34,002 nucleotides of DNA from Bacteroidia bacterium (lineage in GTDB: Bacteria > Bacteroidota > Bacteroidia > Bacteroidales > VadinHA17): NCBI GenBank assembly GCA_026391215.1, contig JAPLDX010000039.1, positions 1-34,002 of the forward strand, read 5' to 3'. How positions within the stretch are numbered: the stretch's first letter is position 1; every line of letters starts with the position of its first letter. Of the stretch, positions 1-30,588 are shown one piece after another. Both the position numbers and the translations under genes were made by a program. The notes below the pieces were generated by a model. It was not told where the DNA came from, did not search any database, and saw nothing but the letters and a program-made list of their open reading frames with translations.

Positions 1-3000
1 ATATTCATGAGCAGTCATATTCTCATAGCTGCCGAATTCCTGAGGCAGGTACCCGATAAGCCCCTGGAGCTCCTCACGTTTTTTCTGGGTGTCAAGCCCG
101 TTTATCCATACCTTGCCATAGCTCTGCTCCAGGATCCCGCAGATGATCCTCATAAGTGTTGTCTTCCCTGCGCCATTTGGTCCAAGCAATCCGAACATCC
201 CGTTGCCAATGTCCATCGAAACACAGCTTAATGCTTTGAATGGCTTTTTCTTTTTCCCGATCAGAGGTACCGCTGCCACAATTTTATAGATTGTTTTTCT
301 TAAGCCTTTAAACCGGCCTTCAAGCCTGTAGATATCAATATTTTCCGTGCTTAATTTTTGTCCTGTCTTATAGATGAATAATGCTACGAACCATACAAAT
401 CCAAGTATGAGCACAACAGCAATATTATCCCATTTAAGCTGGAAAAGGACAAGGTTTAAAAGAGGGACGATCCAGAAAATCACGAAATCGATGACTGGGA
501 TCATTTTTTTCAGGAATCTTTTCTTACCGCCTGATGTCATATTGGTGAACAGTTCCTTGAACTGGTTCCAGATGGCAGAGAGGAAAAACCATGTCGCAAT
601 GCTGAAAATGAAGATCCAGAATCCCTTCTTAAGGTAGAAATATGTGAAATAGACCATGAATGCAAATAACGGAAGCTGCCATGCTACCTGTGTCATGTCC
701 TTCCATTTCCTGAAATGCCGTTTTAGGCCGAGCCTGGTCCTTATCCTGTCACCTGCCCTCCATTCACGGGCCCAGCGGTTTTCCCTGTCGTAGATCTTTA
801 CAAGACTTTGTACACGGATGTTGATGTTTTCTTCGGGAGGAATGACTGTCTCCCTTGCCTTTCTAAGGCTGTTCATTATAAACCATGTTGCTGCAGGAAC
901 TAAGATTACGCTGAGAATTGTGGTGATAAGCTTCCAGAGGAATTTATCTATATTAGTGTAAATCAGAAAGATCAATAAGCTAAACACAAGAAGCTGGATT
1001 ATTTGGTTCTTCCATCCCAGCGATTTGAACCAATCAAGTGCATTCTCAAGTCCTGAATAAAATGTAGGAATAAATATAAGTGTAAGAAGGGTGCTGAGAG
1101 TGAGTCCTCCAATGACAGTAATGGCAAAAGAGGCCCCGATTACTGAAACAAATTCAGCTTTGCCCATTGCCAGGGGAACCATGGCTATAACTGTTGTCGA
1201 AGCAGTAATGAGTATTGGCCTTATCCTTGCCATGCCCGCCGACATCAATGCCCGCGAGCGGCGATATCCCCGTTTTCTCAGGATATTTGTATAATCGATA
1301 AGTATGATCCCGTTGTTGACCACAACCCCGAGGAGTATCAGGAGACCCAGAAGGGTGTTCGCATTTATAAGTGTGTTGCCTGTAAGGATAAGCGCTATCA
1401 GTGATCCAAGGGCAGCGAGTGGAATGCTGAACAGAAGCACAAACGGTATTGCAAGAGACTCAAAAACAGCGGCGAGGATCATGAAAATAAGAAGGAAGGC
1501 AATTCCTATCAGCTTGTAAAAATCTTTGAACTGGTCCTCTTCATGCACTACCTCTACCGCAATTCCTGCAGGGATATTCAGCCCGGCGACAATTGATTCA
1601 ATTTCAATCCTTGCTCCCTCAAGGAGATCCTTAGAGGATTCAATCTCGCTTGTGAAATTATAGGTTACAGTCACCCTCTTTTCCTGGTTCTCCCTGTGGA
1701 TATTACCTGTCCCGTATGCGAAAATAATATTTGCAAGCTCTTCCATTTCCATCACCCCTCCTGAAGCAGTGCTTACTTCAAGACGCCTCAGGTCATCAAT
1801 TGTTTTATCTTCATTTCGGTTTGCCAGTGTGTCTTCTTCAGCATATTTAATAATAATATCATAGCTGTCGGTCCCCTGCTTGAATGTTGCCTCCGAGGAA
1901 TATTCCCTTCCGAAAGTCATCAGCGCTGCCGAAAGATTCATTAGATTAATATTGTTCCTGCCGATATAGTCCATGTCAAAATGAAGCTGAACTTCAGGTT
2001 TATTGTCCTGGACATTCAGATTTACCCTATCGATAGTGGTAAGTGCATCAACATAGGTTCTTATATCATTGGCAAGGTCTTTCATTTGTTCAAAATCCTG
2101 TCCCTTGATGATAACGCTTTCCGATTGAGAACCGATGCCAAGCATGTTCATAAATCCTTCTCCCGGATTAATGGTTTCACCACCACCTCCACCTCCTCCT
2201 TCAAATCCGCCGCCTGTCGAAATATCATCCATGCTTATTTCAGCAGAAGAGATATTCTTTGTTTTTTCCGAGATGTCATTTTTTATTTCAGGAAGGCTCC
2301 TTTTGCTTTTTTTGTCCCAGTCTTCCGGAAGACTGATGGTTACGGTAGCCTGGTCTTCCTCGATACGGCTGACAATATCCTGCTTCTCCGGCAGTGATGC
2401 CAGCCTTGATTCAATTTCCGAAACGACTGCATCGGTTTTTTTAAGCGTTGATCCGGCCGGCATTGTCACGCTCAGCCTGAAATCAGGCGTATTTATTTCC
2501 TGGGGATTGTTCAGACTTAATGTCAGGCTTATGAGAAGCGCAGCAAAAAAGAGAGCCAGCGTCCCGATAATTGTTGATGCGGGCTTTCTCATACTTGCTT
2601 TAAGCACAAGATGGTATGCCTGGATCAGCCTGTCATGCAGGGATAGTTTCTTGAATACTTCTGAATTGCCTGTTGATTTTCCTGACAGAAGGAAGTTTGT
2701 TGCCATCGGGATGAACAGCACCGCAACTGCAAGAGATACAAGGAGGGTTGAGACTATTGAAACTCCAATGTTCTTTCCGATTATTTTGATCAGGAAGTTT
2801 GTCGAAAATATAAAGGGGAAGAAGACCACGATGGTTGTCAGGGTGGAGGCAAATATAGCCCTCCAGACTTCTCTGGTACCTTGCTTTACGGCTGTCTCAG
2901 GATCCTTGCCCAAGCCCGCAAGTCGATAGATATTCTCGAGCACCACCACGGAGTTATCGACCAGCATTCCAATAGCAAGTGCAATGCCGACCAGAGTAAG

Positions 3001-4149
3001 GCTGTTGATGGTTATATCATAGGCATAAAAGAAATTGAATGCAGCGTAAACTGAAATAGGCATTGAGACTGCAATAACTGTCACGAGACGAACATTCCTT
3101 AGAAAGAACCAGAGAATAATTATAGCCAGGATAGCTCCTGTTATTGCCAGGTTAATGATCTGGTTGATATTCTCCTCCATCGTCTCGGCGCTGTTATACT
3201 GAACGACAACTTCGACTCCGGCAGGAGCAAGATCCCTGTTAAGCTTGTTTACCTGGTCTATGGCATCATGTGACAGCTTGATAAGATTAGCCTGGTTATC
3301 ATTAACAAGGTTCACTGTAACAGCATCCATCCCGTTGACCCTGCTGTATGACGTCTGCTCCTTAACACCATAAAAGATCTCGGCAATATCGCGCAGCAAT
3401 ACAGGCCCTTCCTGCTTGACGATGATACTGCCAATTTCATTTACATCAGTATATTCCGAGGTAATGTTTACGAACAGCTCGTTATTGCCGTCAACTACCT
3501 TGCCAGCGAAAGTCTTTTCCCTTCCGTTATTGTTAAGCAGAGTCCTGATCTGTCCCATAGTTATTCCCAGGGATTTACATGCTTTCTCGTTGAGACGGAT
3601 CTCAATTGAATTCTCCTGACCTCCGTAAACCTGCACTCCGGCAATGCCATCAATGTTCTCAAATTTGGGCTTGATATCCCTGTCTGTGATGTTTCTGATC
3701 CTGTCAACGCCTCCCTCTCCCAATACCTGGAGCGCCATGAACTGGTTTGTCAGCTCCTCAAGGTCAATCTTTATTACATTAATAATAAACTCCTGGGGAA
3801 TTGAACTCTTTACCAGATCTATTTTTTCCTGCAGCTTGAGGTTAGCATATTTAAGATCGGCATTCTGATTGTAATAGATCACGATTGTACCGAAACGGGA
3901 GCTGATGTTTGTTTCTATCTTTTCAACTCCCTCAAGTGTACCTATCGTTCCTTCAATAGGAATGATAGCTTGTGTTTCTATATATGAAGGGTCCATTTCC
4001 AGGGGAGTGCCAACCTGGACTAACAATGCCGGAAGCTGCGCATTCGGGATGAGCTCAAGTGATAATTTCTTATAAGAGATGTAGCCGAGCATTGACAGCC
4101 CGGTAAATAACATTATGATAAGGATCCTTCTTTTTAAAATAAAGTCCAT
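1..4149 (-). CDS. AcrB/HAE1-like RND permease fused C-terminally to extra TM helices and an ABC ATP-binding domain (>=1383 aa, 3' end outside window)
   Basis: Manual translation from ATG at 4149: [40 protein letters not shown]...; TM4 [16 protein letters not shown] (~2970-2925); TM10 [10 protein letters not shown] (1320); [12 protein letters not shown]; TM12 [20 protein letters not shown]. Same frame then gives [22 protein letters not shown] (Walker A 183-157) and Q-loop [10 protein letters not shown] (60-31). 1320->1 was read codon by codon with no stop. For the rest, any in-frame stop would have produced a closed minus-strand ORF in the track, and none is listed. Confidence 0.93.
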   Translation of the reverse strand, partial: [1383 protein letters not shown]

Positions 4150-4156
4150 TTTTCTC

Positions 4157-7100
4157 TTAAGATTGAACAGGATCTGCTGCAGTTCTTCTTTTACCTCTTA
4201 CAAAAACGCTGAATGAATCAAAAACCCAGTAGACACATGGAATGACAACAAGTGTCAGAAGCGTTGAGGATACCAGTCCTCCGATCACCGCCAGGGCCAT
4301 CGGAGACCTTAGTGATGCACTTTCCCCGATACCGATTGTCAGCGGCAGCAGAGCCAGTATTGTTGTCAGACTTGTCATAAGGATCGGCCTGATACGCTGT
4401 GATCCGGCAAGTACAATGGCATCTTTCTTCTCCATTCCCCCTTCCCTCAGCTGATTTATCCTGTCTATGAGTATTATCGCGTTGTTGACAGCAATCCCCG
4501 CCAGCATTATGATACCGATATAAGCCATCATGTTCAGCGATTTGCCAAGCAGAAAGAATATCAGTACAGTTCCGACTCCGGCAAGAGGGATGGTAAGCAT
4601 AATGACAAAAGGCTGTATTATTGATTCAAACTGTGCTGCCAGCACCATGAATACAAGGACCAGTGAAAGGATCAATGCAAACGTCAGATTTGTATTGGAT
4701 TCTTCTCTTTTCATCTCCTCTCCGGTGAACTCCATCTTGTAATCAACCGGCATAACAATGCCTTTCAAAGCTGATTCAGCGTCTCTGATGACCTGGTCAA
4801 ATGCCATACCCGGTTTTACCATTGCATATATGTAGCACGTTCTCGACTGGTTACGCCTCGTAATTTCCCTTGGACTCACAATTGTCCTTATATCAGCCAG
4901 TTCGCTTAACGGAACCCTCACATTGCCGGCAGTTATCATGAGATCCTGAAGCTGATGCAGTGATATCTCTCCAAGCCTGATTGTAATATCTTTCAGCTCT
5001 CCCTCCTGTTCAAAGCTGCCGGCTGCAGCTCCCTCAAGATAGCTCTTTAGCTGGTTGATCACATTCTCGACGGTAACATTGTAATAGCTCGTCTTAAAAC
5101 GGTCAATGGCCACCTCTACCTCAGGAGTTCCTTCATCCATTGAGGTTGTAAGATTACTGAGCCCGGGATTTTGTTCAAGGATTGCCCTGGATTCCTTAAG
5201 GATCTTTTCAAGCTCAATATAATCCTCACCTGAGATCTCAAGTGCAAAGGGAGATTCAGTTGTTCCGAGCGATGTCTGAAGTGCAGTCTCTTCCCTGGTA
5301 AAGTTCACTTCCAGGTCAGGGACAGATTCAAGGTAGTTCTCAATCAGGGTTATTGAACTTTCAGTCTCTGATGCATATTTATCGGTAAGGATCACTTTGA
5401 GGGAAGCTGTGTTTTCACCTTGTACAGTCGATGTCTGGCTTATTGTTGAAGTATTGTCTTCCCCCGACTGGCTGTATATCATTTTTATCTTTTCACCGAG
5501 AAGTTCCCTGATGATACCTTCAGTATTGGAGGCGGTGCTGAAAGTCCTTTCCAGGCTGGTGCCTTCAGGCAGCTTCAATTCGATTGTAAATTCGGCTGAT
5601 TCGGATTTTGGCATAAATTCACTTCCCAGCTGAGGTATAAGCAGGGCACAGGCACCCATCAGAATGACAGCCAGGAGAATGACAAGATTTCTCTTTTCCA
5701 CGATTTTCTCCAGGAACCTGGTATACCAGGTAAATTTGACCGGTGCGCTTAAACGGTCTTTTTTCTTAGTATCTCTGAACAATGTTGAAACCAGCATTGG
5801 TATTACAAGCATTGCTACGAGAAGTGATGAAAGAAGGGAAAAAGCCACCGTCCATGCCTGGTCCCTGAACATTTCACTTGATGCGCCATGAAGGTAAACG
5901 ATAGGAAGAAAAACCACAATTGTTGTAACGGTGGATGATGTGATTGCTGCCCCCACCTGGCCGGCGCCATTTATTACCGCATCTTTCAGCGGCATTCCTT
6001 CCTCAGTCAGACGGGTAATATTCTCGAGTACGACGATTGAATTATCCACAAGCATTCCAGCTCCCAGGGCAAGTCCGCCCAAAGTCATTATATTGAGAGT
6101 GAGGTGATTGAAGTACATCAGGTTGAATGTGGCAATTATAGATATTGGAATTGCCACACTTATTACCAGGGTTGTCCCTATTCTCCTGAGAAAAATATAC
6201 AGGACGAAAACCGCAAGAAGGATACCTATTAATAATGTATTCTTTACTTCACCTATTGCATTCTTAATATAGGTTCCCTGGTCCAGCACCTTGATGAATT
6301 CATATCCTGGCAATGCTTTCCCCAGGTCAATAATAGCCTTATCAAGGCTTTTTACTGCATCAACAGTATTGAATTTAGGTTCTTTATATATTGAAAGCCC
6401 GATACACCTCTCCCCATTGATTGTAACAATGTTCTGAGGATCTTTATTTGCAAAACCGATTTTTGCAACATCCCTCAGGTATACAGGCACCCTTGCTGAA
6501 GATGAAGCAGTGGAACCACCAGCAGCCGAAACGGCTGAAACATTTGCAGCTGATGAACTTCCTGAAGATGATGCCTGTTTGAAGCCGACAATAATATTCT
6601 CAAGATCCTGAAGATCTTCAAGAACACTAACACCTTTAACGACATATTTTGTTCCCATGTCGACTATCGAGCCTCCCGAAACATTCCTGTTGTAATTACT
6701 AATCTGTGCTGCTATCCCGTCAGATGTAAGCCCGAATGACTCAAGCAGATATTTGTTTGTCTTAATTACCACTTCACTCTCTTCCACACCGGTCAGTTTC
6801 ACGTCGGCCACACCTTCAATCCTTACGAGCTCATTGCGGATATAATTTTCAGCAACTTTCCTTAGCTCATCCATATTGGTTATGCGGTCATTCTTAAGTC
6901 CAACGATCATTACAGGAGATGCATTGGGATCGTACTGTGAAATTGTAAAATCCTCAAGATCAGAGTTCTGACTGAATGAATTCAGCTCTTTCTGAAGATC
7001 AAGGAATGCCTCATCCATATCCTTGTTCCAGTTGTATTCCACTGTTATATTGGCTGAACCGGCATGTGATACAGACGACACCTGTGTCACATTACTCTGC

Positions 7101-7321
7101 CTCATAGCCAGTGATTCAATCTGATCAACATAATTCTTTTCTATCTCTTCGGGAGGCTTTTCACCTGCTTTCAGCTCAATATAGATCTTTGGAGTGTTGA
7201 GATCAGGAAACAGGTCAGTGCCGAGCTTACCGAACGAGATAAATCCCAGCAGGACGATGCCCAGCATCAGCATAAGAACCGTGACCGGGTATTTGACAGC
7301 AAATCGGGCAATAGCGTTCAT
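4157..7321 (-). CDS. Efflux RND transporter permease subunit (AcrB/AcrD/AcrF family), 1054 aa
   Basis: ORF track; typical length and motifs GMLVDNSIVVLENI, LAAQFES, GIAVNNAIILID, RIRPILMTSLTT, AVIGGL. Confidence 0.97.
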   Translation of the reverse strand: MNAIARFAVKYPVTVLMLMLGIVLLGFISFGKLGTDLFPDLNTPKIYIELKAGEKPPEEIEKNYVDQIESLAMRQSNVTQVSSVSHAGSANITVEYNWNKDMDEAFLDLQKELNSFSQNSDLEDFTISQYDPNASPVMIVGLKNDRITNMDELRKVAENYIRNELVRIEGVADVKLTGVEESEVVIKTNKYLLESFGLTSDGIAAQISNYNRNVSGGSIVDMGTKYVVKGVSVLEDLQDLENIIVGFKQASSSGSSSAANVSAVSAAGGSTASSSARVPVYLRDVAKIGFANKDPQNIVTINGERCIGLSIYKEPKFNTVDAVKSLDKAIIDLGKALPGYEFIKVLDQGTYIKNAIGEVKNTLLIGILLAVFVLYIFLRRIGTTLVISVAIPISIIATFNLMYFNHLTLNIMTLGGLALGAGMLVDNSIVVLENITRLTEEGMPLKDAVINGAGQVGAAITSSTVTTIVVFLPIVYLHGASSEMFRDQAWTVAFSLLSSLLVAMLVIPMLVSTLFRDTKKKDRLSAPVKFTWYTRFLEKIVEKRNLVILLAVILMGACALLIPQLGSEFMPKSESAEFTIELKLPEGTSLERTFSTASNTEGIIRELLGEKIKMIYSQSGEDNTSTISQTSTVQGENTASLKVILTDKYASETESSITLIENYLESVPDLEVNFTREETALQTSLGTTESPFALEISGEDYIELEKILKESRAILEQNPGLSNLTTSMDEGTPEVEVAIDRFKTSYYNVTVENVINQLKSYLEGAAAGSFEQEGELKDITIRLGEISLHQLQDLMITAGNVRVPLSELADIRTIVSPREITRRNQSRTCYIYAMVKPGMAFDQVIRDAESALKGIVMPVDYKMEFTGEEMKREESNTNLTFALILSLVLVFMVLAAQFESIIQPFVIMLTIPLAGVGTVLIFFLLGKSLNMMAYIGIIMLAGIAVNNAIILIDRINQLREGGMEKKDAIVLAGSQRIRPILMTSLTTILALLPLTIGIGESASLRSPMALAVIGGLVSSTLLTLVVIPCVYWVFDSFSVFVRGKRRTAADPVQS

Positions 7322-7326: not shown

Positions 7327-8379
7327 TTATTTGATTATTTTCACTTTCGACCTGTTGCTGAGGGTCTCAAAGCCGCCTGTAACCACGCGTTCATTTTTAG
7401 CAAGCCCCCTGGTAACCTCAACATCAGTGATATTCTCAAGTCCTGTTTCAATTATACGTTCCGCTGCAACGCCACGGTCAACTATGAATACTGTCTTACC
7501 TCTCTGACGGGATAGTATGATGCTCTTCGGAATTACAATTACGGAATCCCTGAGGTCAGTCACTATATCTGCTTTCACGAACATTCCCGGCCGCAAAAGG
7601 TAATCCTGGTTATCAATGGATACAGTTCCCTTGAAGGTCCTTGTATCGGCATTTATTGCCGGTGACAATTGTGTCACATGGCCTATTATGGTATCTTCGG
7701 GAATCGTATAATTTGTAAGCTTGACAACCTGCCCGGCTTTAATGACAGAGATATATTTTTCAGGCATCTGGACATCCATGTACATTGTCCTGTAGTCCAT
7801 TATCTTAACGATTGTCAATCCGGTTTCAATCTGTGTGCCCTGTGTATGATATGGCAGATCTACAATAACACCATCGATCGGAGCAACTATTTTTGTCTTT
7901 GCCAGCTGCAGCTTTGAATTGACAACAGTCGTCTTTGCATTTTCATAGTTGATGCCCGCGGTCTTAAGCTCCTTGAGAGTGACTCCTCCTTTTTCGTACA
8001 GTGATTCCTGCTTTCTCAGCTCTGTTTCCATGAGCTCAAGGTTAAGCTTGTTTGTCTCCATCTTAACGGAATTTATATACTCCTCGTCCTCGAGCCTGGC
8101 AATCAGATCGCCGGTTTTGACCTTGTCGCCCATCTGCCACATTTTCCCGGTCTGTGGATTTCTTTCAAGAAAATATGTTGCGCCAATTTTTGATTTAAGC
8201 TCTATCTCTCCTTTTGGGAATGCAGTGCCGGTAGTATTGATGAATTCCTCAATTGGCCTGAGCTTAAGCTCCTCGACTGAAACAGGGATCTCGACATCTG
8301 CTGTCAGGTTCTGGTCCTGGTTACGGCATGAGGCAAGTGCAAAAAGCAAGGCTGCGGCTAGGATTAGATTTTTCTTCAT
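7327..8379 (-). CDS. RND periplasmic adaptor (membrane fusion protein), predicted lipoprotein
   Basis: Lipobox-like LASC at residue 18; GDKVKTGDLIARL and IVAPIDGVI lipoyl halves, LRPGMFV, VIPKS, GLAKNERVVTGG. Confidence 0.95.
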   Translation of the reverse strand: MKKNLILAAALLFALASCRNQDQNLTADVEIPVSVEELKLRPIEEFINTTGTAFPKGEIELKSKIGATYFLERNPQTGKMWQMGDKVKTGDLIARLEDEEYINSVKMETNKLNLELMETELRKQESLYEKGGVTLKELKTAGINYENAKTTVVNSKLQLAKTKIVAPIDGVIVDLPYHTQGTQIETGLTIVKIMDYRTMYMDVQMPEKYISVIKAGQVVKLTNYTIPEDTIIGHVTQLSPAINADTRTFKGTVSIDNQDYLLRPGMFVKADIVTDLRDSVIVIPKSIILSRQRGKTVFIVDRGVAAERIIETGLENITDVEVTRGLAKNERVVTGGFETLSNRSKVKIIK

Positions 8380-8398: not shown

Positions 8399-9883
8399 TT
8401 ATTCTTCTATTGACATTACCGGTGATACAGCCTCCTTCTTTTCAAAGTCATAGAGAGTCTGTATTTTAAGATTCAGCAACTCAAACTTATAGGATATAAG
8501 CGAATTGGTATATGAAAGCTGTTTCTCTGAAAGCTGGTTCTGAAATATATTCAGGTCCATACCTGTAAGATCGCCATTCTTGTATTTTTCAAGATTAAGA
8601 TCATAAGTAAGCTGAGCATTTATTACATTCTGACGTGCTATTTCGATCTGATTCTGAAGATTAAGCAGGTTCCTGTAAACCTTTCTTATACTGAGAATTA
8701 TATCATTCTGCTCCTCTTCCAGCGATATGTTTGCAGTCTCTATTGACGCCTCTGATGCTTTGATACGTGATTTTCTTTCTCCCCAATCCCATAATGGTAT
8801 GATAAGCGAAAGAGACACACTTTCATTATCTGTAGGATTATCATACACACCTCCGAATTTTTCATTATCCCCGAAGAGGCCGACCGAAAGGCCAAGACTT
8901 CCTTTAAATTCATTGAGTGATTTGGTCTGCATTAATTCGAATTCAGATTCCTCAATGCTTATTTTCCTTTGCCTCAGCTCCATCCTGTTTGCCAGTCCCT
9001 GATCGATTGCAAATGAAATATCTATCTGAACAGTATCCACTGCAATGTTAGGCAGTACGATGAGGTCATCATAAAGACTCATTCCGATCAGAACTTTAAA
9101 ATCATCCTTGGCATTTTCAAGATCGACCTGCTTGTTTTCATAATCCGATCTTGCTGTGGCAAGGTTAAGTTCTGCCTGGAACATTTCTTCACGGGGGGAG
9201 ATGCCGGCATCAACCTTATTCCTTGATACCTCGTAGCTTTTCTTCATATTCTCATATGCCTGGCTGGCTATATCAAGACTCTGCTGCTGCTGGTATACAT
9301 AGTAAAAAGCCTGGGTTACCATATTCTCAAGCGATAACAGCTGTATGGCATAGTTGAGCTGTGAATTTTCAAGGGCGAGCTCGAGTTCCCTCAGCTGGAG
9401 CTTTGTCCTGTTATATGTGAACAAAGGCTGATCGAGGCTCAGGGATAGATTATTGCTGAATCCTTTTGTCGTCTGATCGGTGTATTCGCTGTAAGAATCG
9501 GTATACCCGAACTTATTTGTTAATGAGACTCTTGCGTCGGTAAGAACTATCGGCTGTGATATTGTGAAAAGGCTATAGCTTTCAGTAGTTTGGGTTGAGT
9601 TCCATTTAGATATAAGCTCATTGAATGTCCTGTTCTGGCTATAGCCAATCGGGTTTACTGACAGGGAGAAGCTCGATTTCAATGCAGCCTTCTGTGCATT
9701 CAGATTCTCCTGGCTTCTTACCAGGCTGAGCCTTGTCTTTTTCATCGTCGGACTGTTTGTCTCGGCAACCTTCAGCGCCTCCTCAAGAGTCAGCCCCTTC
9801 TGCGGAAAAACACATAACGTACTTATTATCAGCAAGAATCCTGAAAATATATACCTGCTTCTTGTTTTAATTAGAATTTTCAT
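8399..9883 (-). CDS. TolC-family outer membrane efflux protein
   Basis: LTLEEALKVAETNS start, LSLDQPLF, VTQAFY, LIIPLWDWG, two OEP halves. Start set at ATG 9883 before the signal peptide; ATG 9910 is an alternative. Confidence 0.93.
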   Translation of the reverse strand: MKILIKTRSRYIFSGFLLIISTLCVFPQKGLTLEEALKVAETNSPTMKKTRLSLVRSQENLNAQKAALKSSFSLSVNPIGYSQNRTFNELISKWNSTQTTESYSLFTISQPIVLTDARVSLTNKFGYTDSYSEYTDQTTKGFSNNLSLSLDQPLFTYNRTKLQLRELELALENSQLNYAIQLLSLENMVTQAFYYVYQQQQSLDIASQAYENMKKSYEVSRNKVDAGISPREEMFQAELNLATARSDYENKQVDLENAKDDFKVLIGMSLYDDLIVLPNIAVDTVQIDISFAIDQGLANRMELRQRKISIEESEFELMQTKSLNEFKGSLGLSVGLFGDNEKFGGVYDNPTDNESVSLSLIIPLWDWGERKSRIKASEASIETANISLEEEQNDIILSIRKVYRNLLNLQNQIEIARQNVINAQLTYDLNLEKYKNGDLTGMDLNIFQNQLSEKQLSYTNSLISYKFELLNLKIQTLYDFEKKEAVSPVMSIEE

Positions 9884-9939
9884 TTTATCTATTTGAATTC
9901 TTTTAACCATTTTCTTAACCAAGGAGTTACACTGTTTTT

Positions 9940-9992: not shown

Positions 9993-12900
9993 TCATTCCA
10001 CTCTGACCCACTTTATCGCATCCCCCAGTACGACCCTTCCTGCCGACTGATTTGTCAGTTCAACCTTTGCGCTGTCGGATGATATATAATAGCGACCCAT
10101 GTTATTCCATCCTGCTTCTGCATTCTCAAAATCCACGGTTATCTCCTCAACACCTTCATCATGATATATTTTATAATGCATATCCTTATAAAGACTCTCC
10201 TGTCTTGATTCATCGCCCGGAGGAGGAGGTGCATTTCCTCCGCTGGTGACAGTTACACGTTCAGTCATTTTTCCGACGTAACAATAAATATCATAATAAC
10301 CAGCCTTATCAACAGGTGTTATCCATGATACAGGTCTGTCGTCTGTTCCGCCTGCTGTATAGACCGAAGAGAGAATGTACTTGCCATAGTAATACGAATT
10401 TACTACCGGTTGCCAGTAATTCGGGCGATCATATCTTCGTACCTGCTGATAGATATCTCCCCTGGTGTTTTTTATTCTTAGTATCTTTTTTAGAAGGCTC
10501 GGGCTCTGCCTTATTCCAGGATTGAATCCGGGATCTTCATTGTCAACAATGGTTTCGCCGGGATATGAATACCGCGGCATTGACTCCAACAGTTCTTCAC
10601 TGTCTGAATCTCCGTTTTTGTTTTTCGATTTTTTTATTTCATCAACAGGCATATTAATTTCTCCCGGAATGTTCTTTGCACCAAGAGAGTTGATAAGCAT
10701 TTCTCTTGGTTCTGTATCAAGAATTATGCTGATCTTCTTTGCTTCACCCGGCCCCAGCATTACAATTTTTGAAATATCTGTGACATCCATTCCTCTTCCC
10801 TGACTCTGAAAATCATATGCTCCTGCCATGCCCTGCTGGGATGTTAACGATGTCTGACGTGCACTGCCTCCTGCCCCTGCTGTCCTGAATGCTACATTGA
10901 ATATTCCGGCAACGGGTTCAGGATTTGATGCGGTAAAAGTGACCCGATACCTGATCCTGTTGTCCACAACAATTTCATTTACCTGCATATCGGTAAAAAG
11001 AAATCCCGGCTGCTCTTTTGTATTGAACCAGTCATACAGATAAGGATAAAACTCAAATCCGAATTTTGCTTTTATATCATCATTGAATCTCTTTATATCT
11101 ATCCTTATGAATTTATGATCCTCAACATAATTGCGGAAAAAATCATTGAACTCCTGGATACCGGCTTTTGATCTCAGAATATTGAAAATATAATCTCCTT
11201 TAAGTGTCACTATGAGCCTGACAGTATCAATCCCCGGATTCATGGCAAGCAGATCCCTGAAGCTTCCGATCCTGAATATCAGGTTTGTCCTGTCAATATC
11301 AGAGAGTCCGCCTATCCATGATCTGTAATCCCATTCCGGTTGAGTATCAATTTTCTGAAGATGTGATTCAAAGACGGCATTTATCACAGGATAATCTTCT
11401 GAAAAGAAATTGTTCTTATGGAAATAGAAGCTCGGACCGAGCAAATATCGGCCAGGTTCATTTATAACAACGTTATTCCTGAATCTGATATTCTCTCCGT
11501 TAATGAAAGTATTCCTTATGAAATCATTAAATATCCTTACCTGAAGCTCTTTGTCAGTTATAACCTGGTTATTTCTGGCCATTCTTTTCTTGTTGCGATT
11601 GAATCGTTTTTGAAAGCCGGCACCCTGAGTTGTGGATAACTTCTCAGGGAGCAGTACCATTGAGGGCTGCACCTCAGCCCTGGTCTGCGTGCTCATCCTG
11701 GGTAAAGAATAAAACTGAACAGGTACCTCAAGAAGGCTCAGTGTCCTGAAAGGATATTTAGTGGAAAAGTTTACTTCCAAATCTCTCAATATACCTTTGA
11801 CAAGCAATGGCAGGGTATCTTTTATTTCTGCAAGAGCCTTTTTATAATAATCATGTCCGGGAAAGTAGTACGTGATATAATTAATTGTATCATCCTTTAA
11901 TGTATCTGACCTGTAGTCACCTATGGCAAGTGTCAGCCCTGTTAGAGGTGATTCAGGGTCGAAAACAGAATAACCATCCTCTGCCTTCATTATTCCCTGT
12001 GAAACCGGCGTCAGACCATTCATTGGTTTGACACGTAAAGTATAATTAGTAAAATCAACTTTAATTCTGGCCGGATTGGAGGGATAGTAATTAAGTCCCG
12101 GAACCGGATACCAATGTAACTCGGGAATTAACAGGACATACTTCTCCGATAGAAATGCCTGACGCTTGTGTATGTTCAGCATTTGGATCTGATAAGGATT
12201 TTCTTTGATATTATCAGTATAATCAGGATAACTGAATGATTCATTAATAGTACCGGAATACGAAATGATCAGACTGTCCTGTCGTCCGGGAAGAAGAGTT
12301 GTCAGAGCATCAACTTCTATTATGTGGTGAGTTGTTTTAAAGGTGAGATCTTTTCCGCCTGAAGTGATCCCTGTGACATTTAAACCCGGATTTAGTGAGA
12401 ACAGGTATTTGTCGAGACCCTCTTTATTATCATTTGTGAATTTCAGCGCAGCAGTTGCATCAAATGAATTCCCATTGTGTATAAAATCAATTGCAGCATC
12501 AGTCAGGCTTACAACATTCCTGTCTTCAAACTGTTTATTGGTCTCAATGACCAGTTTCTTTTCATCAATATCTTTCTTATATATAGAATAAGTGTTATAA
12601 GCACACACAACTGCTCCTGCCGTGAATATGACCAGGAAGACGTAACTCAGTATTGTATGCAGCCGTGATTGTGGCAACCTTTTGAATAACAATACTGTTA
12701 CAAGGACAAAGACAAGTCCCAGGAAAAAGTAAAGCAAACGCTGGTTTATTATAAAATCAAGATTATCATATCCAATGACACCCGATTTAAAAACTGGAAG
12801 ACCGAATGCCATATAATCGAATATTGACCCGAAACGGAAATAAAGATAGAAGATGTCGAGAGCAGCTATTCCAAGCAGTATAAGAAAAGTTATAGCCTGG

Positions 12901-13421
12901 TTCCTGATGACAGACATCAGCATAAAAGCCAGCCCGAGACTGAAGACAATTGTTGGTACACAGATAATAAGAAGATATGATAGATATGATAAAAGGTCGA
13001 TCGTCATCATTTTTGAAATGATATTCATCAGCAGGCCTATTAACAGGATTATGATATCCAGTCCAAGGAAAAGCCTTAGAATGCCCCATGTCTTCCCCAT
13101 TATATATTCGAAGTTGGACATGGACCTTGTGTAAAGAACTTCATTTGTATCGACCTTCTTATCTCTCTTCAGAAAATCAGAAGCAAGGAATATCACTACT
13201 ATTGCCTGGGCAATATTGAGCAGGTAAAGATTAAGTAGCGGTACTGATGAAGGAATTGAGACAAGACCCCACGTCTCATCTCCGATCGGAGAGAAAACCC
13301 CGATATTCAGGAATGTAAAGATCAATAGGGCACCTATTGAAAAGAGCCTGAAAAACCAGCTTCTCCTCAGGATTGTGGCTTCATACCTGGCAACTGTTCT
13401 TATGTTAAGAAGGGGTGTCAT
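9993..13421 (-). CDS. ABC-2 type permease fused to M1-aminopeptidase-like ectodomain (no HExxH) and C-terminal golvesin/Xly-like domain
   Basis: About 7 hydrophobic segments in the first ~280 aa with ABC-2-like motif DTNEVLYTRSMSNFEYIMGK; M1-like segments ELHWYP, KYPFRTLSLLEVP, LKGDYIFNILRSKAG..F..FFRNY; C-terminal IVDNEDPGF...GYYDIY...GWNNMGRY...VLGDAIKWVR. ATG 13421 preferred over TTG 13445. Confidence 0.85.
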   Translation of the reverse strand: MTPLLNIRTVARYEATILRRSWFFRLFSIGALLIFTFLNIGVFSPIGDETWGLVSIPSSVPLLNLYLLNIAQAIVVIFLASDFLKRDKKVDTNEVLYTRSMSNFEYIMGKTWGILRLFLGLDIIILLIGLLMNIISKMMTIDLLSYLSYLLIICVPTIVFSLGLAFMLMSVIRNQAITFLILLGIAALDIFYLYFRFGSIFDYMAFGLPVFKSGVIGYDNLDFIINQRLLYFFLGLVFVLVTVLLFKRLPQSRLHTILSYVFLVIFTAGAVVCAYNTYSIYKKDIDEKKLVIETNKQFEDRNVVSLTDAAIDFIHNGNSFDATAALKFTNDNKEGLDKYLFSLNPGLNVTGITSGGKDLTFKTTHHIIEVDALTTLLPGRQDSLIISYSGTINESFSYPDYTDNIKENPYQIQMLNIHKRQAFLSEKYVLLIPELHWYPVPGLNYYPSNPARIKVDFTNYTLRVKPMNGLTPVSQGIMKAEDGYSVFDPESPLTGLTLAIGDYRSDTLKDDTINYITYYFPGHDYYKKALAEIKDTLPLLVKGILRDLEVNFSTKYPFRTLSLLEVPVQFYSLPRMSTQTRAEVQPSMVLLPEKLSTTQGAGFQKRFNRNKKRMARNNQVITDKELQVRIFNDFIRNTFINGENIRFRNNVVINEPGRYLLGPSFYFHKNNFFSEDYPVINAVFESHLQKIDTQPEWDYRSWIGGLSDIDRTNLIFRIGSFRDLLAMNPGIDTVRLIVTLKGDYIFNILRSKAGIQEFNDFFRNYVEDHKFIRIDIKRFNDDIKAKFGFEFYPYLYDWFNTKEQPGFLFTDMQVNEIVVDNRIRYRVTFTASNPEPVAGIFNVAFRTAGAGGSARQTSLTSQQGMAGAYDFQSQGRGMDVTDISKIVMLGPGEAKKISIILDTEPREMLINSLGAKNIPGEINMPVDEIKKSKNKNGDSDSEELLESMPRYSYPGETIVDNEDPGFNPGIRQSPSLLKKILRIKNTRGDIYQQVRRYDRPNYWQPVVNSYYYGKYILSSVYTAGGTDDRPVSWITPVDKAGYYDIYCYVGKMTERVTVTSGGNAPPPPGDESRQESLYKDMHYKIYHDEGVEEITVDFENAEAGWNNMGRYYISSDSAKVELTNQSAGRVVLGDAIKWVRVE

Positions 13422-13437
13422 AATTTCCCTGGCTATC

Positions 13438-14331
13438 CTATTCAATTAAATCAGCATGCATTTTATGTTCCATATAATATACATAAGCATCTTCTATATT
13501 CGGTATTATTTCAGTTGATTCAAATTCCGGAATGTTATCTGCAACAATCTGCACCTCCCATCCGGATTCTACAGGGATCGTGGAGATCACATCATATCGT
13601 TCCTTGACCGTCTCATAATCGCGGGGCGAAAGATTTAGCTTAAATACATGTCCTTCAGCTTGTTTGACGAGGCTTTCAGGAGATCCAGTAAACACAAGCT
13701 CTCCCTTATTCAGCAATGCCATTCCCTGGCAGGTAGAGGAAATGTCCCCGACAATATGTGTCGAAAGGATTATAGTAACATCATGCTGGCTGAGCTCTGA
13801 GAGGATATTCCTGAACCTTATCCTTTCATCAGGATCAAGTCCGGTTGTAGGTTCATCGACAATAATAATCCGCGGATTCCCGATAAGCGCCTGTGCAATT
13901 CCAAGCCTTCGCTTCATCCCTCCTGACAGCTTGTTGGCCTGACGGTCACGCACCTCCAGAAGCCCTACCTGGTCAAGAAGTCTGTCAACTTCTGCAAATC
14001 TCTCTTTTTTATTTTTCAAACCTGCCAATGATCCTGAATAATCAAGGAATTCCCAAGTCCTCAGTGAAGAGAAAAACCTGAAATCCTGCGGAAGATAGCC
14101 GAGCATGCCTCTGATTTCCTTCCTGTGTTTCTGGATATCTTTCCCATCAACAAGCACAACACCCGAAGTAGGTTTCATCAGTGTCACCATTATTCTCATA
14201 AGGCTTGATTTGCCAGCTCCGTTGGGTCCGAGAAGTCCGAACATGCCGGTTCCGAATTCAAGGTTTACATCCTTTAATGCCTGATTGCCATTTGGATATA
14301 TTTTATTCAGCCCCTGAATTTCAATTTTCAT
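13438..14331 (-). CDS. ABC transporter ATP-binding protein (ABC-2/DrrA-like)
   Basis: Walker A GPNGAGKS, Q-loop GYLPQ, signature LSGGM, Walker B IIIVDEP, H-loop LSTH. Confidence 0.97.
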   Translation of the reverse strand: MKIEIQGLNKIYPNGNQALKDVNLEFGTGMFGLLGPNGAGKSSLMRIMVTLMKPTSGVVLVDGKDIQKHRKEIRGMLGYLPQDFRFFSSLRTWEFLDYSGSLAGLKNKKERFAEVDRLLDQVGLLEVRDRQANKLSGGMKRRLGIAQALIGNPRIIIVDEPTTGLDPDERIRFRNILSELSQHDVTIILSTHIVGDISSTCQGMALLNKGELVFTGSPESLVKQAEGHVFKLNLSPRDYETVKERYDVISTIPVESGWEVQIVADNIPEFESTEIIPNIEDAYVYYMEHKMHADLIE

Positions 14332-14591: not shown

Positions 14592-15845
14592 GTGACATTT
14601 AAAACAAACAAAAGAAAGATAATCAATGATCCTGTATATGGATTCATAAATATTCCTGGTGATTTTATTTTTGACCTTGTTGAGCATCCATGGTTCCAGA
14701 GGCTGAGGAACATCAGGCAGCTCGGGCTTACAAGCTTTGTTTATCCCGGAGCCAACCACAGCAGGTTTCAGCATTGCCTGGGGGCATTGCACCTTATGGA
14801 TCTTGCACTCGGGACACTTAAAGGAAAGGGTGTCAGCATTTCGCAGCAGGAGGAAGAGGCCGCACAGATTGCTATTCTTCTGCATGACTCCGGTCATGGC
14901 CCGTTCTCCCATGCTCTTGAGACTTCAATAATCAATGGCATTTCCCATGAAGACATTTCCCTCCTGATGATGAGGAAGCTGAATGAACAGTATCAGGGGA
15001 AACTCAGCCTGGCAATAGAAATTTTCAAAGGGACTTATCACAGAAAATTTCTGCATGAGCTTATTGCAGGACAGATAGATATGGACAGGCTCGACTACCT
15101 GCGCAGGGACAGTTTCTTTACAGGAGTCATCGAAGGTTCAGTGGGATCGGACAGGATAATCCGTATGCTTAATGTTGTCGATGACAGCCTTGTAGTAGAT
15201 GAAAAAGGAATTTATTCACTCGAAAAATTCCTGATAGCCCGAAGGCTTATGTATTGGCAGGTTTATATGCATAAGACAGTGCTTTCTTCGGAAAACCTGC
15301 TTGTGAGAATTCTCAAGCGGGCAAAGGAGCTTGCGCTTGAGAGCGTCGACCTATATGCTACTCCGGCCCTACGGTTCTTCCTGTATAATAAAATAGGCCC
15401 TGATGATCTTCTGAGGGATGGAAATTTCACGCCAGGCCTGGTGGCTTCAACATTTACCAGGCTTGATGATTCAGATATCCTTGTCTCGGCAAAATACTGG
15501 GCTGATCATTCCGATAAGATCCTTTCCGATCTTTCAGCGAGGCTTATGAAAAGAGACCTCCTGGCAATAGAACTGCAGAATGAACCGTTCCCTAAAGAAA
15601 GGGTGAATAAACTGAAAGCCATGACTGCAGAAATGAAAGGTATAAGTACAGAAATGGCGGATTATTATGTTTTCACAAACAGCATATCGAACCTTGCATA
15701 TACGCCTGATGCACCGGAAGTCAGAATATTGCTAAAATCGGGCAAGACAGAGGGCATCTCAACAGTTTCGGATATGTTCGATCACAGATTTAATTCAGAG
15801 AGAATGATTAAATATTTTCTTTGCTATCCAAAAGAATGCAGATAA
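14592..15845 (+). CDS. HD-domain phosphohydrolase (dNTP triphosphohydrolase-like)
   Basis: INDPVYG, FQRLRNIRQLG, HSRFQHCLG, LLHDSGHGPFSH, DMDRLDYL; usual position upstream of lpxD in Bacteroidota. Confidence 0.93.
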   Translation: MTFKTNKRKIINDPVYGFINIPGDFIFDLVEHPWFQRLRNIRQLGLTSFVYPGANHSRFQHCLGALHLMDLALGTLKGKGVSISQQEEEAAQIAILLHDSGHGPFSHALETSIINGISHEDISLLMMRKLNEQYQGKLSLAIEIFKGTYHRKFLHELIAGQIDMDRLDYLRRDSFFTGVIEGSVGSDRIIRMLNVVDDSLVVDEKGIYSLEKFLIARRLMYWQVYMHKTVLSSENLLVRILKRAKELALESVDLYATPALRFFLYNKIGPDDLLRDGNFTPGLVASTFTRLDDSDILVSAKYWADHSDKILSDLSARLMKRDLLAIELQNEPFPKERVNKLKAMTAEMKGISTEMADYYVFTNSISNLAYTPDAPEVRILLKSGKTEGISTVSDMFDHRFNSERMIKYFLCYPKECR

Positions 15846-15860
15846 CTAATTATAAGAATC

Positions 15861-16898
15861 ATGGAATTTACAGCAGCAACAATAGCCGGATTTCTGAAAG
15901 GAGAAATAGTAGGAGATCCTGATACCGTTGTCAATACAATAGCGAAAATTGAAGAAGGTCATGAAGGGGCTCTTTCATTTCTTGCAAATCCGAAATACGA
16001 GCATTACTTATATACCACCGGATCATCTGTTGTGCTGGTAAACAAAAGCCTGGTGCCGTCTGAAAAAGTCAGAGCCACTATGATCAGGGTTGATAATGCC
16101 TATGAATCGTTTGCATCTCTGCTTCAGCTTGTTGATCAGGCAAGGCCAAGAAAAAAAGGCATACATCCCACAGCGGTCATAGAGCCAACAGCCACTATTG
16201 GATCAGATATCTATATAGGAGCGTTTGCATATATCGGCGATAATTCTGTGGTGGGAGACAATTGCTCAGTATATCCCCATGTTTATTTAGGTGACAGAAC
16301 CAGGATAGGCAAAGACAGCATTCTTTATTCAGGTGTCAAAATTTACCATGAATGTATTGTTGGCGAGGGATGCATAATCCATGCAGGATCAGTTATCGGA
16401 AGCGACGGTTTCGGATTCGCACCCCAGTCTGAAACGGAATACATGAAAATACCGCAGATTGGCAATGTTGTTATTAAAGATCATGTGGAGATCGGTGCAA
16501 ATGTAACAATTGACCGTTCCACAATGGGGTCCACAGTGATCCATAAAGGAGTTAAGCTTGATAATCTCATCCAGGTAGCCCATAATGTGGAAATAGGCGA
16601 AAACACTGTTATAGCAGCACAAACAGGAATTGCAGGTTCAGCAAAAGTAGGCAGGAACTGTATGATAGGAGGACAGGTAGGTATCGCCGGACATATTAAA
16701 GTTGCTGACGGAACAAAAGTAGGAGCACAGACTGGTATTCACAGTAATGTAAGAACTGAAAACACTATATTACTAGGCTACCCCGCTATCGAACATAAGA
16801 ATTTCTTCAGATCAGCAATGATTTTCAAAGATTTACCAGAACTATCAGCCAGACTAAATGCTTTGGAAAAAGAGGTTAAATCACTTAAAGAAAAGTAA
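15861..16898 (+). CDS. lpxD: UDP-3-O-(3-hydroxyacyl)glucosamine N-acyltransferase
   Basis: LSFLANPKY, hexapeptide repeats, [26 protein letters not shown]. Confidence 0.98.
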
Positions 16899-17017
16899 AA
16901 AATTGTCCTGGTCTGTTTTAAATTAACTGGTATTTATGCAGTTATAAGCAGTTTTTTTAGATTGTTCTGTTTTTTTTTATTTTTTTTGTACCCGAAATCA
17001 CAATCAATACAATACTG

Positions 17018-18412
17018 ATGAGTGAAAAGCAAAGAACACTGGCGAAGGAAATCAGTCTTAACGGCAAGGGATTGCATTCTGGTATCAATGTGACAATTAC
17101 ATTCAAGCCGGCACCGGCAAATCACGGATATAAATTTTGCAGGATTGATCTTCCGGGGAAACCGATAATTGAAGCTCTTGCTGACAATGTTTCAGATACT
17201 TCAAGGGGAACTACACTGGTTCAGAATAATGCTTCGGTTGCCACAGTTGAACATGCTCTTGCTGCATTGCACGGTATGCAGATTGATAATGCGCTGATTG
17301 AGCTTGACGGACCGGAGGCGCCTATTATGGGTGGATCCTCATGGAAAATTGTTGAGGCTCTCAAGGAAGCTGGTTTTGTTGACCTTAAGGAGGACAGGAA
17401 TTATTTCGTAGTAAAACAAAAGCTGACATATTCTGATGAAGAACACGGCGTCGACCTCATCATTTATCCAGACGACCATCTGAGCATCAATGTGCTGATA
17501 GATTATAACTCAAAAATTCTTGGCAACCAGTATGCCATACTTGATTCAATTAAGGACTTTGAGGAAAAAATATGTAAGAGCCGCACATTTGTTTTTTTTC
17601 ATGAGCTGGAGCCTCTTCATAAACTGGGACTGATTAAGGGAGGAGATCTTGATAATGCAGTTGTTATTCTCGAAAAGGAAGTTGAGCAATCTGAGATTGA
17701 CCGTATTGCAAAGCTCTTTAACAGGCCGGGAATAAGCAAGCATACAGCCGGGATACTTAATAATACAGAGCTCCGGTACCCCAATGAGCCGGCAAGGCAC
17801 AAGCTTCTTGACATCATGGGCGACCTGGCGCTGGTCGGACATCCTATTAAAGGGAAGGTTGTTGCAACACGCCCCGGTCATTATGCCAATACAAGGCTTG
17901 CAAAGATCATGAGACAGGAGATGAAAAAATCTCTTTCACAAAGGAATATCCCTGTATATGATCCATCACAGCCGCCGGTTTATGGTCTTGAAGATATTAA
18001 AAGGCGTCTTCCGCACAGAGCTCCATTTCTCTTTGTCGATAAAGTAATAGCACTGGACGAAAACGCTATTGTGGGAATTAAGAACGTGACTTTCAACGAA
18101 CCGTTCTTCCAGGGACATTTTCCGGATGAACCTGTTATGCCTGGAGTTCTGCTTGTAGAAGCCCTGGCACAAACAGGAGGCATCCTGGTACTCCATAATA
18201 TTGATGAGCCTGAAAAATATTCAACATATTTTCTCAAGATTGATAAGCTGAAATTCAAGCATAAAGTAGTTCCGGGTGATACAGTGATCCTTAAGATGGA
18301 ACTTATGGAACCAATGCGCCGCGGAATAGTAACCATGTTTGGCCAGGCATTTGTAGGAAATAACCTGGTTGTTGAAGGCGAGATGACAGCACAGGTAGTT
18401 AAAAACAAATAA
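17018..18412 (+). CDS. lpxC: Bifunctional UDP-3-O-acyl-GlcNAc deacetylase / 3-hydroxyacyl-ACP dehydratase (LpxC-FabZ)
   Basis: QRTLA..GKGLHSG, TVEH, RHKLLDIMGDL (LpxC); LPHRAPFLFVD, FFQGHFPDEPVMPGVLLVEALAQ (FabZ). Confidence 0.98.
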   Translation: MSEKQRTLAKEISLNGKGLHSGINVTITFKPAPANHGYKFCRIDLPGKPIIEALADNVSDTSRGTTLVQNNASVATVEHALAALHGMQIDNALIELDGPEAPIMGGSSWKIVEALKEAGFVDLKEDRNYFVVKQKLTYSDEEHGVDLIIYPDDHLSINVLIDYNSKILGNQYAILDSIKDFEEKICKSRTFVFFHELEPLHKLGLIKGGDLDNAVVILEKEVEQSEIDRIAKLFNRPGISKHTAGILNNTELRYPNEPARHKLLDIMGDLALVGHPIKGKVVATRPGHYANTRLAKIMRQEMKKSLSQRNIPVYDPSQPPVYGLEDIKRRLPHRAPFLFVDKVIALDENAIVGIKNVTFNEPFFQGHFPDEPVMPGVLLVEALAQTGGILVLHNIDEPEKYSTYFLKIDKLKFKHKVVPGDTVILKMELMEPMRRGIVTMFGQAFVGNNLVVEGEMTAQVVKNK

Positions 18413-18419
18413 TTCCGCG

Positions 18420-21258: not shown

Positions 21259-21334
21259 GGCAGTGACATTTGATTTAAAAGATAAAGGTAAGATTTTTGG
21301 AGGAACAAAAAACCCCGTCTGAGCGTAGCTTTTT

Positions 21335-23914: not shown

Positions 23915-24043
23915 AACGGCAGGCATAAAGTGATAAAAGAGAAAAATTACTGAAAATTCTGATAACGGCAAATTCTTTTTGACCAAATGAATAAAATGGT
24001 CTATAAATAAAAGAATTGAATAGATGAAAAATTCCCCGGATTG

Positions 24044-27122: not shown

Positions 27123-27142
27123 AAGAAACAAATTCACTTTCG

Positions 27143-27183
27143 CCCCCTCTTTGCTTTAGCAGAGAGGGGGACGGGGGGTGAGT
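27143..27183. repeat. REP-like intergenic palindrome (CCCCCTCT...AGAGGGGG + GGGGGTGAG tail)
   Basis: CCCCCTCTTTGC-ttta-GCAGAGAGGGGG 12-bp stem with one G.T pair, followed by ACGGGGGGTGAG; no U-tract. Confidence 0.75.
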
Positions 27184-27190
27184 ACATGAA

Positions 27191-27225
27191 GACAAAAGAT
27201 AAAAGACAAAAGGAAAAAGATAAAA
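27191..27225 (+). repeat. Tandem heptamer repeat GnnAAAA x5
   Basis: GACAAAA GATAAAA GACAAAA GGAAAAA GATAAAA immediately before the probable sufC ATG. Confidence 0.8.
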
Positions 27226-27230
27226 GTATC

Positions 27231-29362: not shown

Positions 29363-29363
29363 T

Positions 29364-30584: not shown

Positions 30585-30588
30585 TACA

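Follow-up and report, generated by a model that had tools for sequence, protein, structure and literature searches.

A predicted RND-ABC fusion protein of Bacteroidota in which four membrane helices appear to separate the first strand of the ATPase domain from the rest of its fold

The ATPase domains of ATP-binding cassette (ABC) transporters are treated as soluble cassettes, and their contact with the membrane is understood to be made by non-covalent coupling helices. Two described proteins carry extra structure between the first two strands of the nucleotide-binding domain (NBD). For Wzt, the connection between strands 1 and 2 is described as a gate helix that lies at the water-lipid interface, packs on the permease and shifts by ~8 Å on ATP binding, with Tyr11 stacking on the adenine (PMC6379404). 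For CFTR, it is reported that a channel severed within its strand 1-strand 2 insertion (fragments 1-414 and 433-1480) gates with normal ATP dependence (PMC2217481), from which it follows that strand 1 can come from a separated segment of chain. Here we analyse a stretch of 34,002 nucleotides (the window) from a Bacteroidia bacterium of the VadinHA17 lineage (GCA_026391215.1, contig JAPLDX010000039.1, positions 1 to 34,002), and in it the gene that runs off the contig start. Judging from sequence and structure models, this gene probably encodes one inner-membrane protein of ~1,570-1,580 residues, composed of a resistance-nodulation-division (RND) permease, a two-helix hairpin and a split ABC ATPase. 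By the same evidence, strand 1 of the ATPase is likely separated from the rest of the fold by an insertion of four transmembrane (TM) helices.

The open reading frame (ORF) at 1..4149 on the minus strand comprises 1,383 aa and is open at the contig end; residue i begins at window position 4149-3(i-1). A sequence-only reading of the window had pointed to an ABC ATPase interrupted between its first strand and Walker A, and when the sequence was re-read all strings and coordinates it quoted proved correct, with IRVQSLVKIY at 819-790 and four hydrophobic segments at 687-370. The proposed gap of 185 residues corresponds to residues 1121-1305, which sit between IRVQSLVKIY and A1306 (ALSCVS...GPNGAGK), and the basic stretch GGKKRFLKK is the loop joining the second and third hydrophobic segments of the insertion. 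As had been suggested, the insertion starts directly after an A-loop-like tyrosine: Y1120 is the last residue of the motif, is conserved in at least 90% of homologues, and is followed by the insertion from 1121. The fused ATPase is consequently not a contiguous soluble cassette with a short hairpin between strands 1 and 2, given the 185 residues and four TM helices between Y1120 and A1306.

Assignment of strand 1 was examined for two peptides, IRVQSLVKIY (motif 1) and NIDIYRLEGRF (motif 2), the latter located ~25 residues ahead of strand 2. Orthologues of the stand-alone ATPase encoded nearby provided 17 distinct strand-1 11-mers, from which a position-specific matrix was derived. In 99 fused homologues, every site of the linker was scored with it, starting at the RND end and stopping 18 residues short of Walker A. 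Motif 1 received the top score in 97 of the 99, with a median z of 5.7 and a median best score of 15.8 as compared to 0.8 for the second-best site; motif 2 was the top match in 0/99. Mean column information in 53 sequences was 3.16 bits for motif 1, 3.20 for strand 2 and 3.34 for the NBD core, while it was 2.37 bits for motif 2, 1.5 for the flanking loops and 1.7-2.3 for the TM helices. Using homologue numbering, to which 1033 is added to obtain window numbering, K85 (window K1118) is invariant in both wide alignments, which include relatives with 25-40% linker identity; both also conserve L83, Y87 (window Y1120), E96 and W97 to 90% or more, a level that I78 and I86 reach in alignment A2 only. 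Within the R-x-x-R-E-W of the ensuing basic helix, the Trp is invariant and the two Arg and the Glu are conserved at 90% or above (alignment A5). The sequence-only reading had tied its case to conservation of LVKIY among homologues, and L-x-K-I-Y is indeed kept down to ~25-30% linker identity, in four phyla. From the other side of the insertion, BLASTP aligns the fused NBD to the neighbouring stand-alone ATPase at 42% identity over 274 residues, C-terminal domain included, and the match begins at stand-alone residue 17, equivalent to residue 272 of the fused C-terminal part. For NCBIfam profiles, matching of the NBD body likewise starts at residues 261-288 of that part, the GldA match from profile position 10 and the DrrA match from 5. 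Because these matches begin past the profile start, the sequence just upstream of strand 2 does not supply strand 1.

Structure prediction was done with AlphaFold2 on the C-terminal parts of two complete homologues, the window's own copy being truncated. The first, L005, is a Bacteroidales protein (551 aa; linker identity to the window 89%; 47-row alignment), and the second, L087, is from Latescibacterota (545 aa; linker identity ~31%; 53-row alignment); the models were judged by secondary structure, predicted local distance difference test (pLDDT) and structural-alignment ranges. For L005 and L087, respectively, mean pLDDT was 83.5 and 84.5 and the predicted template modelling score (pTM) 0.65 and 0.69. 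Motif 1 is a strand of 10-11 residues in both models (E78-87, block pLDDT 87/84; E77-87, 79/84). Another segment next to KPFKAL had been named as a possible beta-1, yet none takes that role: the region, motif 2 included, is coil or a three-residue helix and then a helix (248-259 / 244-255), after which this second basic helix leads into strands 2 and 3 and on to Walker A. Alignments of the models to solved NBDs are telling in where they begin. All 50 listed per model start at model residues 72-78, and on the solved side at chain residues -3 to 6, or at ~34-72 and 525-924 in the N-terminally extended ABCG/ABCA chains. FtsE (8hd0_A) aligns over 212/218 residues at 1.9 Å (Z 26.2), model 77..469 on chain 1..218; MJ0796 (1l2t_A) aligns model 77..473 on chain 1..230; and TM0544 (1vpl) aligns over 234/238 residues at 1.5 Å (Z 28.5), model 76..538 on chain 2..239. 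Since these alignments leave out hardly any residue of the solved chains, model residues 77-87 must be where strand 1 of those chains falls, and the A-loop aromatic and strand 1 are predicted to pack on strand 2. The matrix result, the conservation and the strand seen in two AlphaFold2 models together favour IRVQSLVKIY as the displaced first strand of the NBD, in agreement with what had been proposed.

Certain points weigh against this assignment. All structural evidence is predictive, and AlphaFold2, knowing the NBD fold, tends to seat any strand-1-like peptide in that place; the alignments hold few rows (47 and 53), some of them shared, so that the two models are not independent. Both motifs are, moreover, conserved among 44 Bacteroidales homologues, and six positions of motif 2 (D, I, Y, R, L, G) are invariant there. 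Motif 2 could thus be taken as the true strand 1, with a ~25-residue linker to strand 2 as in the Wzt/TagH-type ATPases and with IRVQSLVKIY as a distinct conserved element on the cytoplasmic side, such as a duplication relic or docking peptide. Besides its invariant positions, this explanation has in its favour the I-x-I-x-x-L-x-x-x-F pattern of the peptide, a spacing to strand 2 like that of the gate-helix ATPases, and conservation at 90% or more of G245 and Y255 in the region, albeit these are the only two of its residues to attain that level in the wide alignments. Motif 2 forms no strand in either model, however, is missing or degenerate in P0161, P0219 and P0134, falls short of motif 1 in column information, tops the matrix scan in none of the 99 homologues, and is not the segment used for strand 1 by the structural alignments, which run from model residues 72-78 onward. 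Models, conservation and matrix lead us to reject it, the probability left to it being small.

With IRVQSLVKIY taken as strand 1, the predicted order in the L005 model is helices 13-33 and 37-66, strand 1, a basic helix 92-106, long helices 116-139, 143-173, 178-207 and 210-236, and the second basic helix. The four inserted helices are modelled as two tight hairpins with connecting turns of 2-4 residues, and hydropathy yields the same segments. Lysine and arginine are distributed as expected for such a topology, the median K+R in 53 sequences being 15, 3 and 10 in the inside loops versus 1, 0 and 1 in the outside turns. Hydropathy, model helices and charge pattern, on which the topology rests, agree on an even number of predicted TM helices in the insertion, as the sequence-only reading had anticipated, and the even count implies that both ATPase pieces stay cytoplasmic. 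Of its overall tally of 12+2+4 TMs, the extra 2 and 4 are borne out by hydropathy and models; the 12 of the RND part is taken from the full-length ACR_tran match. An alternative use of the same helices is that the six extra ones (2+4) constitute the transmembrane domain of a classical half-transporter placed behind the RND permease, motif 1 then being an intracellular-loop coupling element. Six helices ahead of an NBD are found in many half-transporters. We nevertheless consider the explanation unlikely, for motif 1 holds the strand-1 position in both models and an NBD without it would lack strand 1 together with the A-loop aromatic. Further, the insertion has no profile similarity to the adjoining ABC-2 permease (hhalign probability 0.2%) or to any Pfam family, and a dedicated ABC-2 permease is encoded downstream in 93/94 loci. 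A half-transporter and a split NBD are not fully exclusive, and the inserted helices could also line a pathway.

Completion of the fused gene depends on a contig join. In the assembly, contig C75 opens with the window, whose positions 1-141 are identical to the terminal 141 nt of contig C63 (C63 1501-1641); other contigs match this stretch at 76-94% identity over 31-55 nt. The assembly break falls inside the conserved ATPase gene of the fusion. In the same frame, C63 encodes the final 199 residues of the fused ATPase, then a six-helix protein of 238 aa. The window part of the NBD holds Walker A (GPNGAGKT) and the Q-loop (LPQEF), the C63 part the signature YSGGMKQR, Walker B ILVVDEPTAGLD and the H-loop STH, and each piece passes the gathering cut-off of 25 for ABC_tran (PF00005), with 49.1 bits for the window and 61.1 bits for C63. 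The join is sound because relatives on uninterrupted contigs show exactly this gene order. That the fusion is an artefact of assembly or gene calling, be it a chimeric contig or two genes read through as one, would find its basis in the gene being cut at the contig end and completed only through the 141-nt overlap. It is refuted by counts of loci and open frames and retains hardly any credibility: the RND part adjoins the ATPase part directly upstream on the same strand in 63/67 and 25/26 independent loci drawn from many assemblies, closed chromosomes included, an open frame of ~1,030-1,060 aa lies upstream in most of 80 Bacteroidales loci, and 22/26 matches from genomes of the window's order reside in stop-free frames of 1,369-1,764 aa.

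The distribution of the insertion was assessed with residues 1034-1305 as query against 1.84 billion representative proteins. There were 106 matching representative clusters, and all 14 clusters of 1,550-1,585 aa place the region at ~1,023-1,300. Five shorter matches that were checked come from contigs of 1.6-5.1 kb, and two of these share a 90% cluster with proteins of 1,565-1,567 aa. P0139 (526 aa, beginning at TM13) was considered as a free TM-plus-NBD protein and dismissed, its contig measuring 2,433 nt and its 90% cluster having a member of 1,567 aa; P0191, P0127 and P0129 were dismissed as stand-alone forms in like manner, being from contigs of 1.6-3.2 kb. P0132, with 400 aa on a 5,078-nt contig, could be either a fusion fragment or a free form. 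On the question raised beforehand of whether the insertion occurs elsewhere, the linker search turned it up only in fusions of ~1,570 aa. Among 201 genomes of the window's order, the insertion region was present in 25 genomes and 22/167 genera, and the 26 matches cited above derive from this set. Candidate stretches were confirmed in 189/215 cases for uncultured Bacteroidales/Bacteroidota relatives and in 33/59 cases for a clade ~31% identical in the linker, which comprises Latescibacterota, Acidobacteriota and Gemmatimonadota. In the ESM Atlas, the 185-aa insertion scored no higher than 0.83, short of the 0.9 level, and found no family; when 33 insertion sequences were run against Pfam at E <= 1, nothing consistent emerged, any one family matching at most 3/33 and none significantly. 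Full-text literature searches, in a collection that lacks most subscription journals, turned up neither an RND-ABC fusion nor an NBD with membrane helices inserted in it.

On the minus strand, the operon has the order stand-alone ABC ATPase, 1,150-aa membrane protein, TolC-like factor, adaptor, a second and unfused RND permease (RND1), fusion and 238-aa permease (Table 1). Counted in loci with enough flank, the small permease is downstream of the fusion in 70/71 Bacteroidales and 23/23 distant loci, RND1 upstream of it in 26/26 distant loci, and the stand-alone ATPase and the large protein both upstream in 21/21 distant loci; in five genomes of the window's order the stand-alone ATPase was found in 5/5 and the large protein in 4/5. 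The set of ATPase, large ABC-2-like permease, adaptor, RND1, fusion and small ABC-2 permease recurs in four phyla. Many Latescibacterota/Gemmatimonadota loci have the start of the small permease overlapping the stop of the fusion by 4 nt (e.g., L085 14704-14707, L087 14707-14710), which suggests translational coupling. The 238-aa permease of the window genome itself has no ABC2_membrane profile match at E <= 0.01; among 37 orthologues, ABC2_membrane_2 is hit by 18 (best E 5.3e-07) and ABC2_membrane_3 by 13. In the 1,150-aa protein, the seven hydrophobic segments lie within the first 282 residues, and the ~860-residue remainder has Golvesin_C at 1087-1147 as its sole match.

Across 53 sequences no variation is seen at the Walker A Lys, the Q-loop Gln, the SGG of the signature, the Asp-Glu of Walker B or the H-loop His, and the fused ATPase with these intact motifs would appear, on sequence grounds, to be active and under selection. 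A pump driven by protons is not known to require ATP, and from this angle the domain could be conceived as a degenerate, non-catalytic regulatory module in which the strand-1 resemblance of IRVQSLVKIY has no meaning. The invariance of all catalytic motifs across several phyla, the conservation of motif 1 to the degree of the NBD core and the co-occurrence of a paralogous stand-alone ATPase with two ABC-2-like permeases make this very improbable. Partnership between the fused ATPase and the small permease was evaluated by complex prediction, in which the fused C-terminal part and the permease scored 0.59, the best of 3 controls scoring 0.00; runs agreed in at least 81% of contacts and the partner pLDDT was at least 75. 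This gives weak support, the mark being reached by 116/157 solved complexes and 2/215 mismatched pairs, and scores <=0.60 comprising 18 of the 157 solved complexes and both of the mismatches that passed; the pass may reflect likeness to solved NBD-permease complexes, not binding. The assignment of partners thus draws on gene order plus one weak complex score, which tells against the wider exporter proposal, as does a failed attempt to relate the two permeases: homology of the large protein's membrane part to the small permease was rejected as too weak, at a hhalign probability of 7.4% (E 0.0048, 142 columns).

The mechanism we propose starts from strand 1, which would carry the A-loop tyrosine Y1120 and be followed by the basic helix and by four membrane crossings arranged as two hairpins. 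The chain would re-enter the cytoplasm via the second basic helix and continue into strand 2, Walker A and the remaining ATPase domain, so that two cytoplasmic pieces would come together to form the ATPase fold, which would be anchored in the membrane on either side of strand 1. The fused ATPase may work with the small ABC-2 permease encoded directly downstream; the stand-alone ATPase and the 1,150-aa permease probably join as well, to give a heterodimeric ABC-2 exporter. Through the six extra helices, this exporter would be tethered to a pump consisting of two RND paralogues, adaptor and outer-membrane factor. An ATP-driven ABC step might deliver substrate from the cytoplasmic to the periplasmic side, from where the RND pump would expel it, and nucleotide-dependent motion of the strand 1-strand 2 region might be passed straight to the inserted helices. 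We advance this two-step model tentatively, with rather less than even confidence. A variant in which the inserted helices and the TM13/14 hairpin pack on the RND membrane domain, the RND permease being driven or gated by ATP besides or instead of the proton gradient, appears doubtful. Relevant to it are the relay residues, read for the fused RND from the alignment to MdtB and for RND1 by eye: both paralogues have VDN where MdtB has VDD (TM4) and VNN where MdtB has KKN (TM10). The TM4 Asp-Asp pair and TM10 Lys of HAE-1 type (AcrB/MdtB-like) permeases are accordingly absent from both. The second TM4 Asp and the TM10 Lys are part of the AcrB-type proton relay.

Comparison with known systems brings out what is shared and what is distinct. 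Like the ATPases of Wzt/TarH(TagH)/KpsT type, the fusion has extra structure that begins right behind the adenine-stacking tyrosine and links strand 1 to strand 2; in that type the insertion lies at the cytosol-membrane interface and moves with ATP binding (PMC6379404), and the ATPase is paired with a six-helix ABC-2-type permease. The difference is one of scale and of attachment, for the single short amphipathic helix outside the bilayer has as its equivalent 185 residues with four predicted membrane-spanning helices, and the fused ATPase is covalently joined to an RND permease. The basic helix (248-259) modelled before strand 2, at the Wzt-like insertion site, is a possible counterpart of the gate helix by analogy, Wzt being compared by description and the connection here also holding four TM helices. 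The regulatory insertion of CFTR (ABCC7) NBD1, residues 404-435, occupies the same strand 1-strand 2 site; it is eukaryotic, ~32 residues long, soluble, mobile and phosphorylated and has no membrane helices, in contrast to that of the fusion. From the Wzt and CFTR precedents it follows that the strand 1-strand 2 site faces the membrane and tolerates interruption. By analogy and from the models, the strand 1-strand 2 connection may have grown into membrane-spanning helices in the fusion.

By family, the fused NBD has its best NCBIfam matches in GldA and DrrA without being a member of either: it scores 176.5 bits against a cut-off of 402.6 for GldA (TIGR03522, an equivalog; profile positions 10-211 of 301) and 167 bits against 312.45 for DrrA (TIGR01188). 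Its best structural match is 4yer_B (Thermotoga TM_1403), with Z 28.1-29.3 and 264-265/277 residues aligned. Stand-alone ATPases of the ABC-2/DrrA/GldA type differ in that strands 1 and 2 follow one another in an uninterrupted hairpin (~5 residues in the paralogue) and in having no RND fusion. By sequence, the fused RND is closest among solved structures to MdtB (9lyq_B, E 2.6e-63), and the arrangement of two tandem RND paralogues (27-28% identical) behind one adaptor gene resembles MdtABC-TolC, where MdtB and MdtC form a heterotrimer; MdtABC, unlike the fusion system, includes neither an ATPase nor an ABC-2 permease nor additional helices. MacAB-TolC, too, has an ABC ATPase joined covalently to membrane helices and working with an adaptor and a TolC-like channel (PMC8277102); MacB has an intact NBD followed by a four-helix permease, nothing inserted in the NBD fold and no RND component.

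If the proposed architecture is correct, it has importance in several respects. Membrane helices built into the cassette right after the ATP-stacking residue would constitute a covalent link from nucleotide state to membrane. The strand 1-strand 2 connection would be able to accept a whole membrane domain, beyond the Wzt gate helix and the CFTR insertion. Proton-driven RND transport and ATP-driven ABC transport, the two principal kinds of efflux machinery in bacteria, would be united in one protein, and the occurrence of the gene set across Bacteroidota, Latescibacterota, Acidobacteriota and Gemmatimonadota would offer a natural system for the coupling of cytoplasm-to-periplasm with periplasm-to-outside transport.

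Table 1. Predicted features of the fusion protein and partner genes of the operon, in window coordinates; helix ranges given for models are in model numbering
Feature	Residues	Window position	Strand	Basis
RND permease domain of fusion	2-1032	1054..4146	-	Pfam ACR_tran 531.7 bits (cut-off 28), profile 3-1018 of 1021
TM13+TM14 hairpin after RND domain	~1046-1099	853..1014	-	hydropathy peaks 1049-1071, 1074-1095; model helices 13-33, 37-66
Candidate displaced strand 1 IRVQSLVKIY, ending in putative adenine-stacking Tyr1120	1111-1120	790..819	-	models, matrix, conservation
Basic helix after strand 1	1125-1139	733..777	-	helix 92-106 / 92-109 in the two models
Four inserted TM helices, two hairpins	~1149-1172, 1176-1206, 1211-1240, 1243-1269	343..705	-	hydropathy, model helices, positive-inside
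Rival strand-1 candidate NIDIYRLEGRF (motif 2)	1270-1280	310..342	-	sequence pattern
Basic helix just ahead of strand 2	1281-1292	274..309	-	helix 248-259 / 244-255 in models
Strand 2, strand 3, Walker A, start of NBD core to contig end		1..240	-	Pfam ABC_tran, residues 1311-1382, 49.1 bits (cut-off 25)
RND1, second unfused RND permease		4157..7321	-	Pfam ACR_tran 739.7 bits; 27-28% identical to fused RND
Periplasmic adaptor		7327-8379	-	Pfam HlyD_D23
TolC-like outer-membrane factor		8399-9922	-	Pfam OEP
1,150-aa membrane protein		9993-13445	-	seven hydrophobic segments + ~860 aa outside
Stand-alone ABC ATPase		13438-14331	-	42% identical to fused NBD

Adjoining the head of the efflux operon and divergent from it, an HD-domain gene, lpxD, an lpxC-fabZ fusion and lpxA occupy 14592-19196 on the plus strand. 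A link between the efflux operon and lipid A synthesis was considered and discarded: none of the four genes was found around the operon head in 5 genomes of the same order (15 kb each, 7 kb in one), and the adjacency, not being repeated there, looks incidental. Farther along, an ORF of 883 aa at 21335-23986 on the minus strand has no Pfam family at E <= 1e-5. It adjoins a DUF4139/DUF4140 protein at 19648-21447, with which it overlaps at 21335-21447, and on account of this overlap the true start in this region is probably further downstream. The plus strand at 25674-31020 carries an ordinary suf operon, with sufB, sufC, sufD, sufS and sufE recognized by Pfam.

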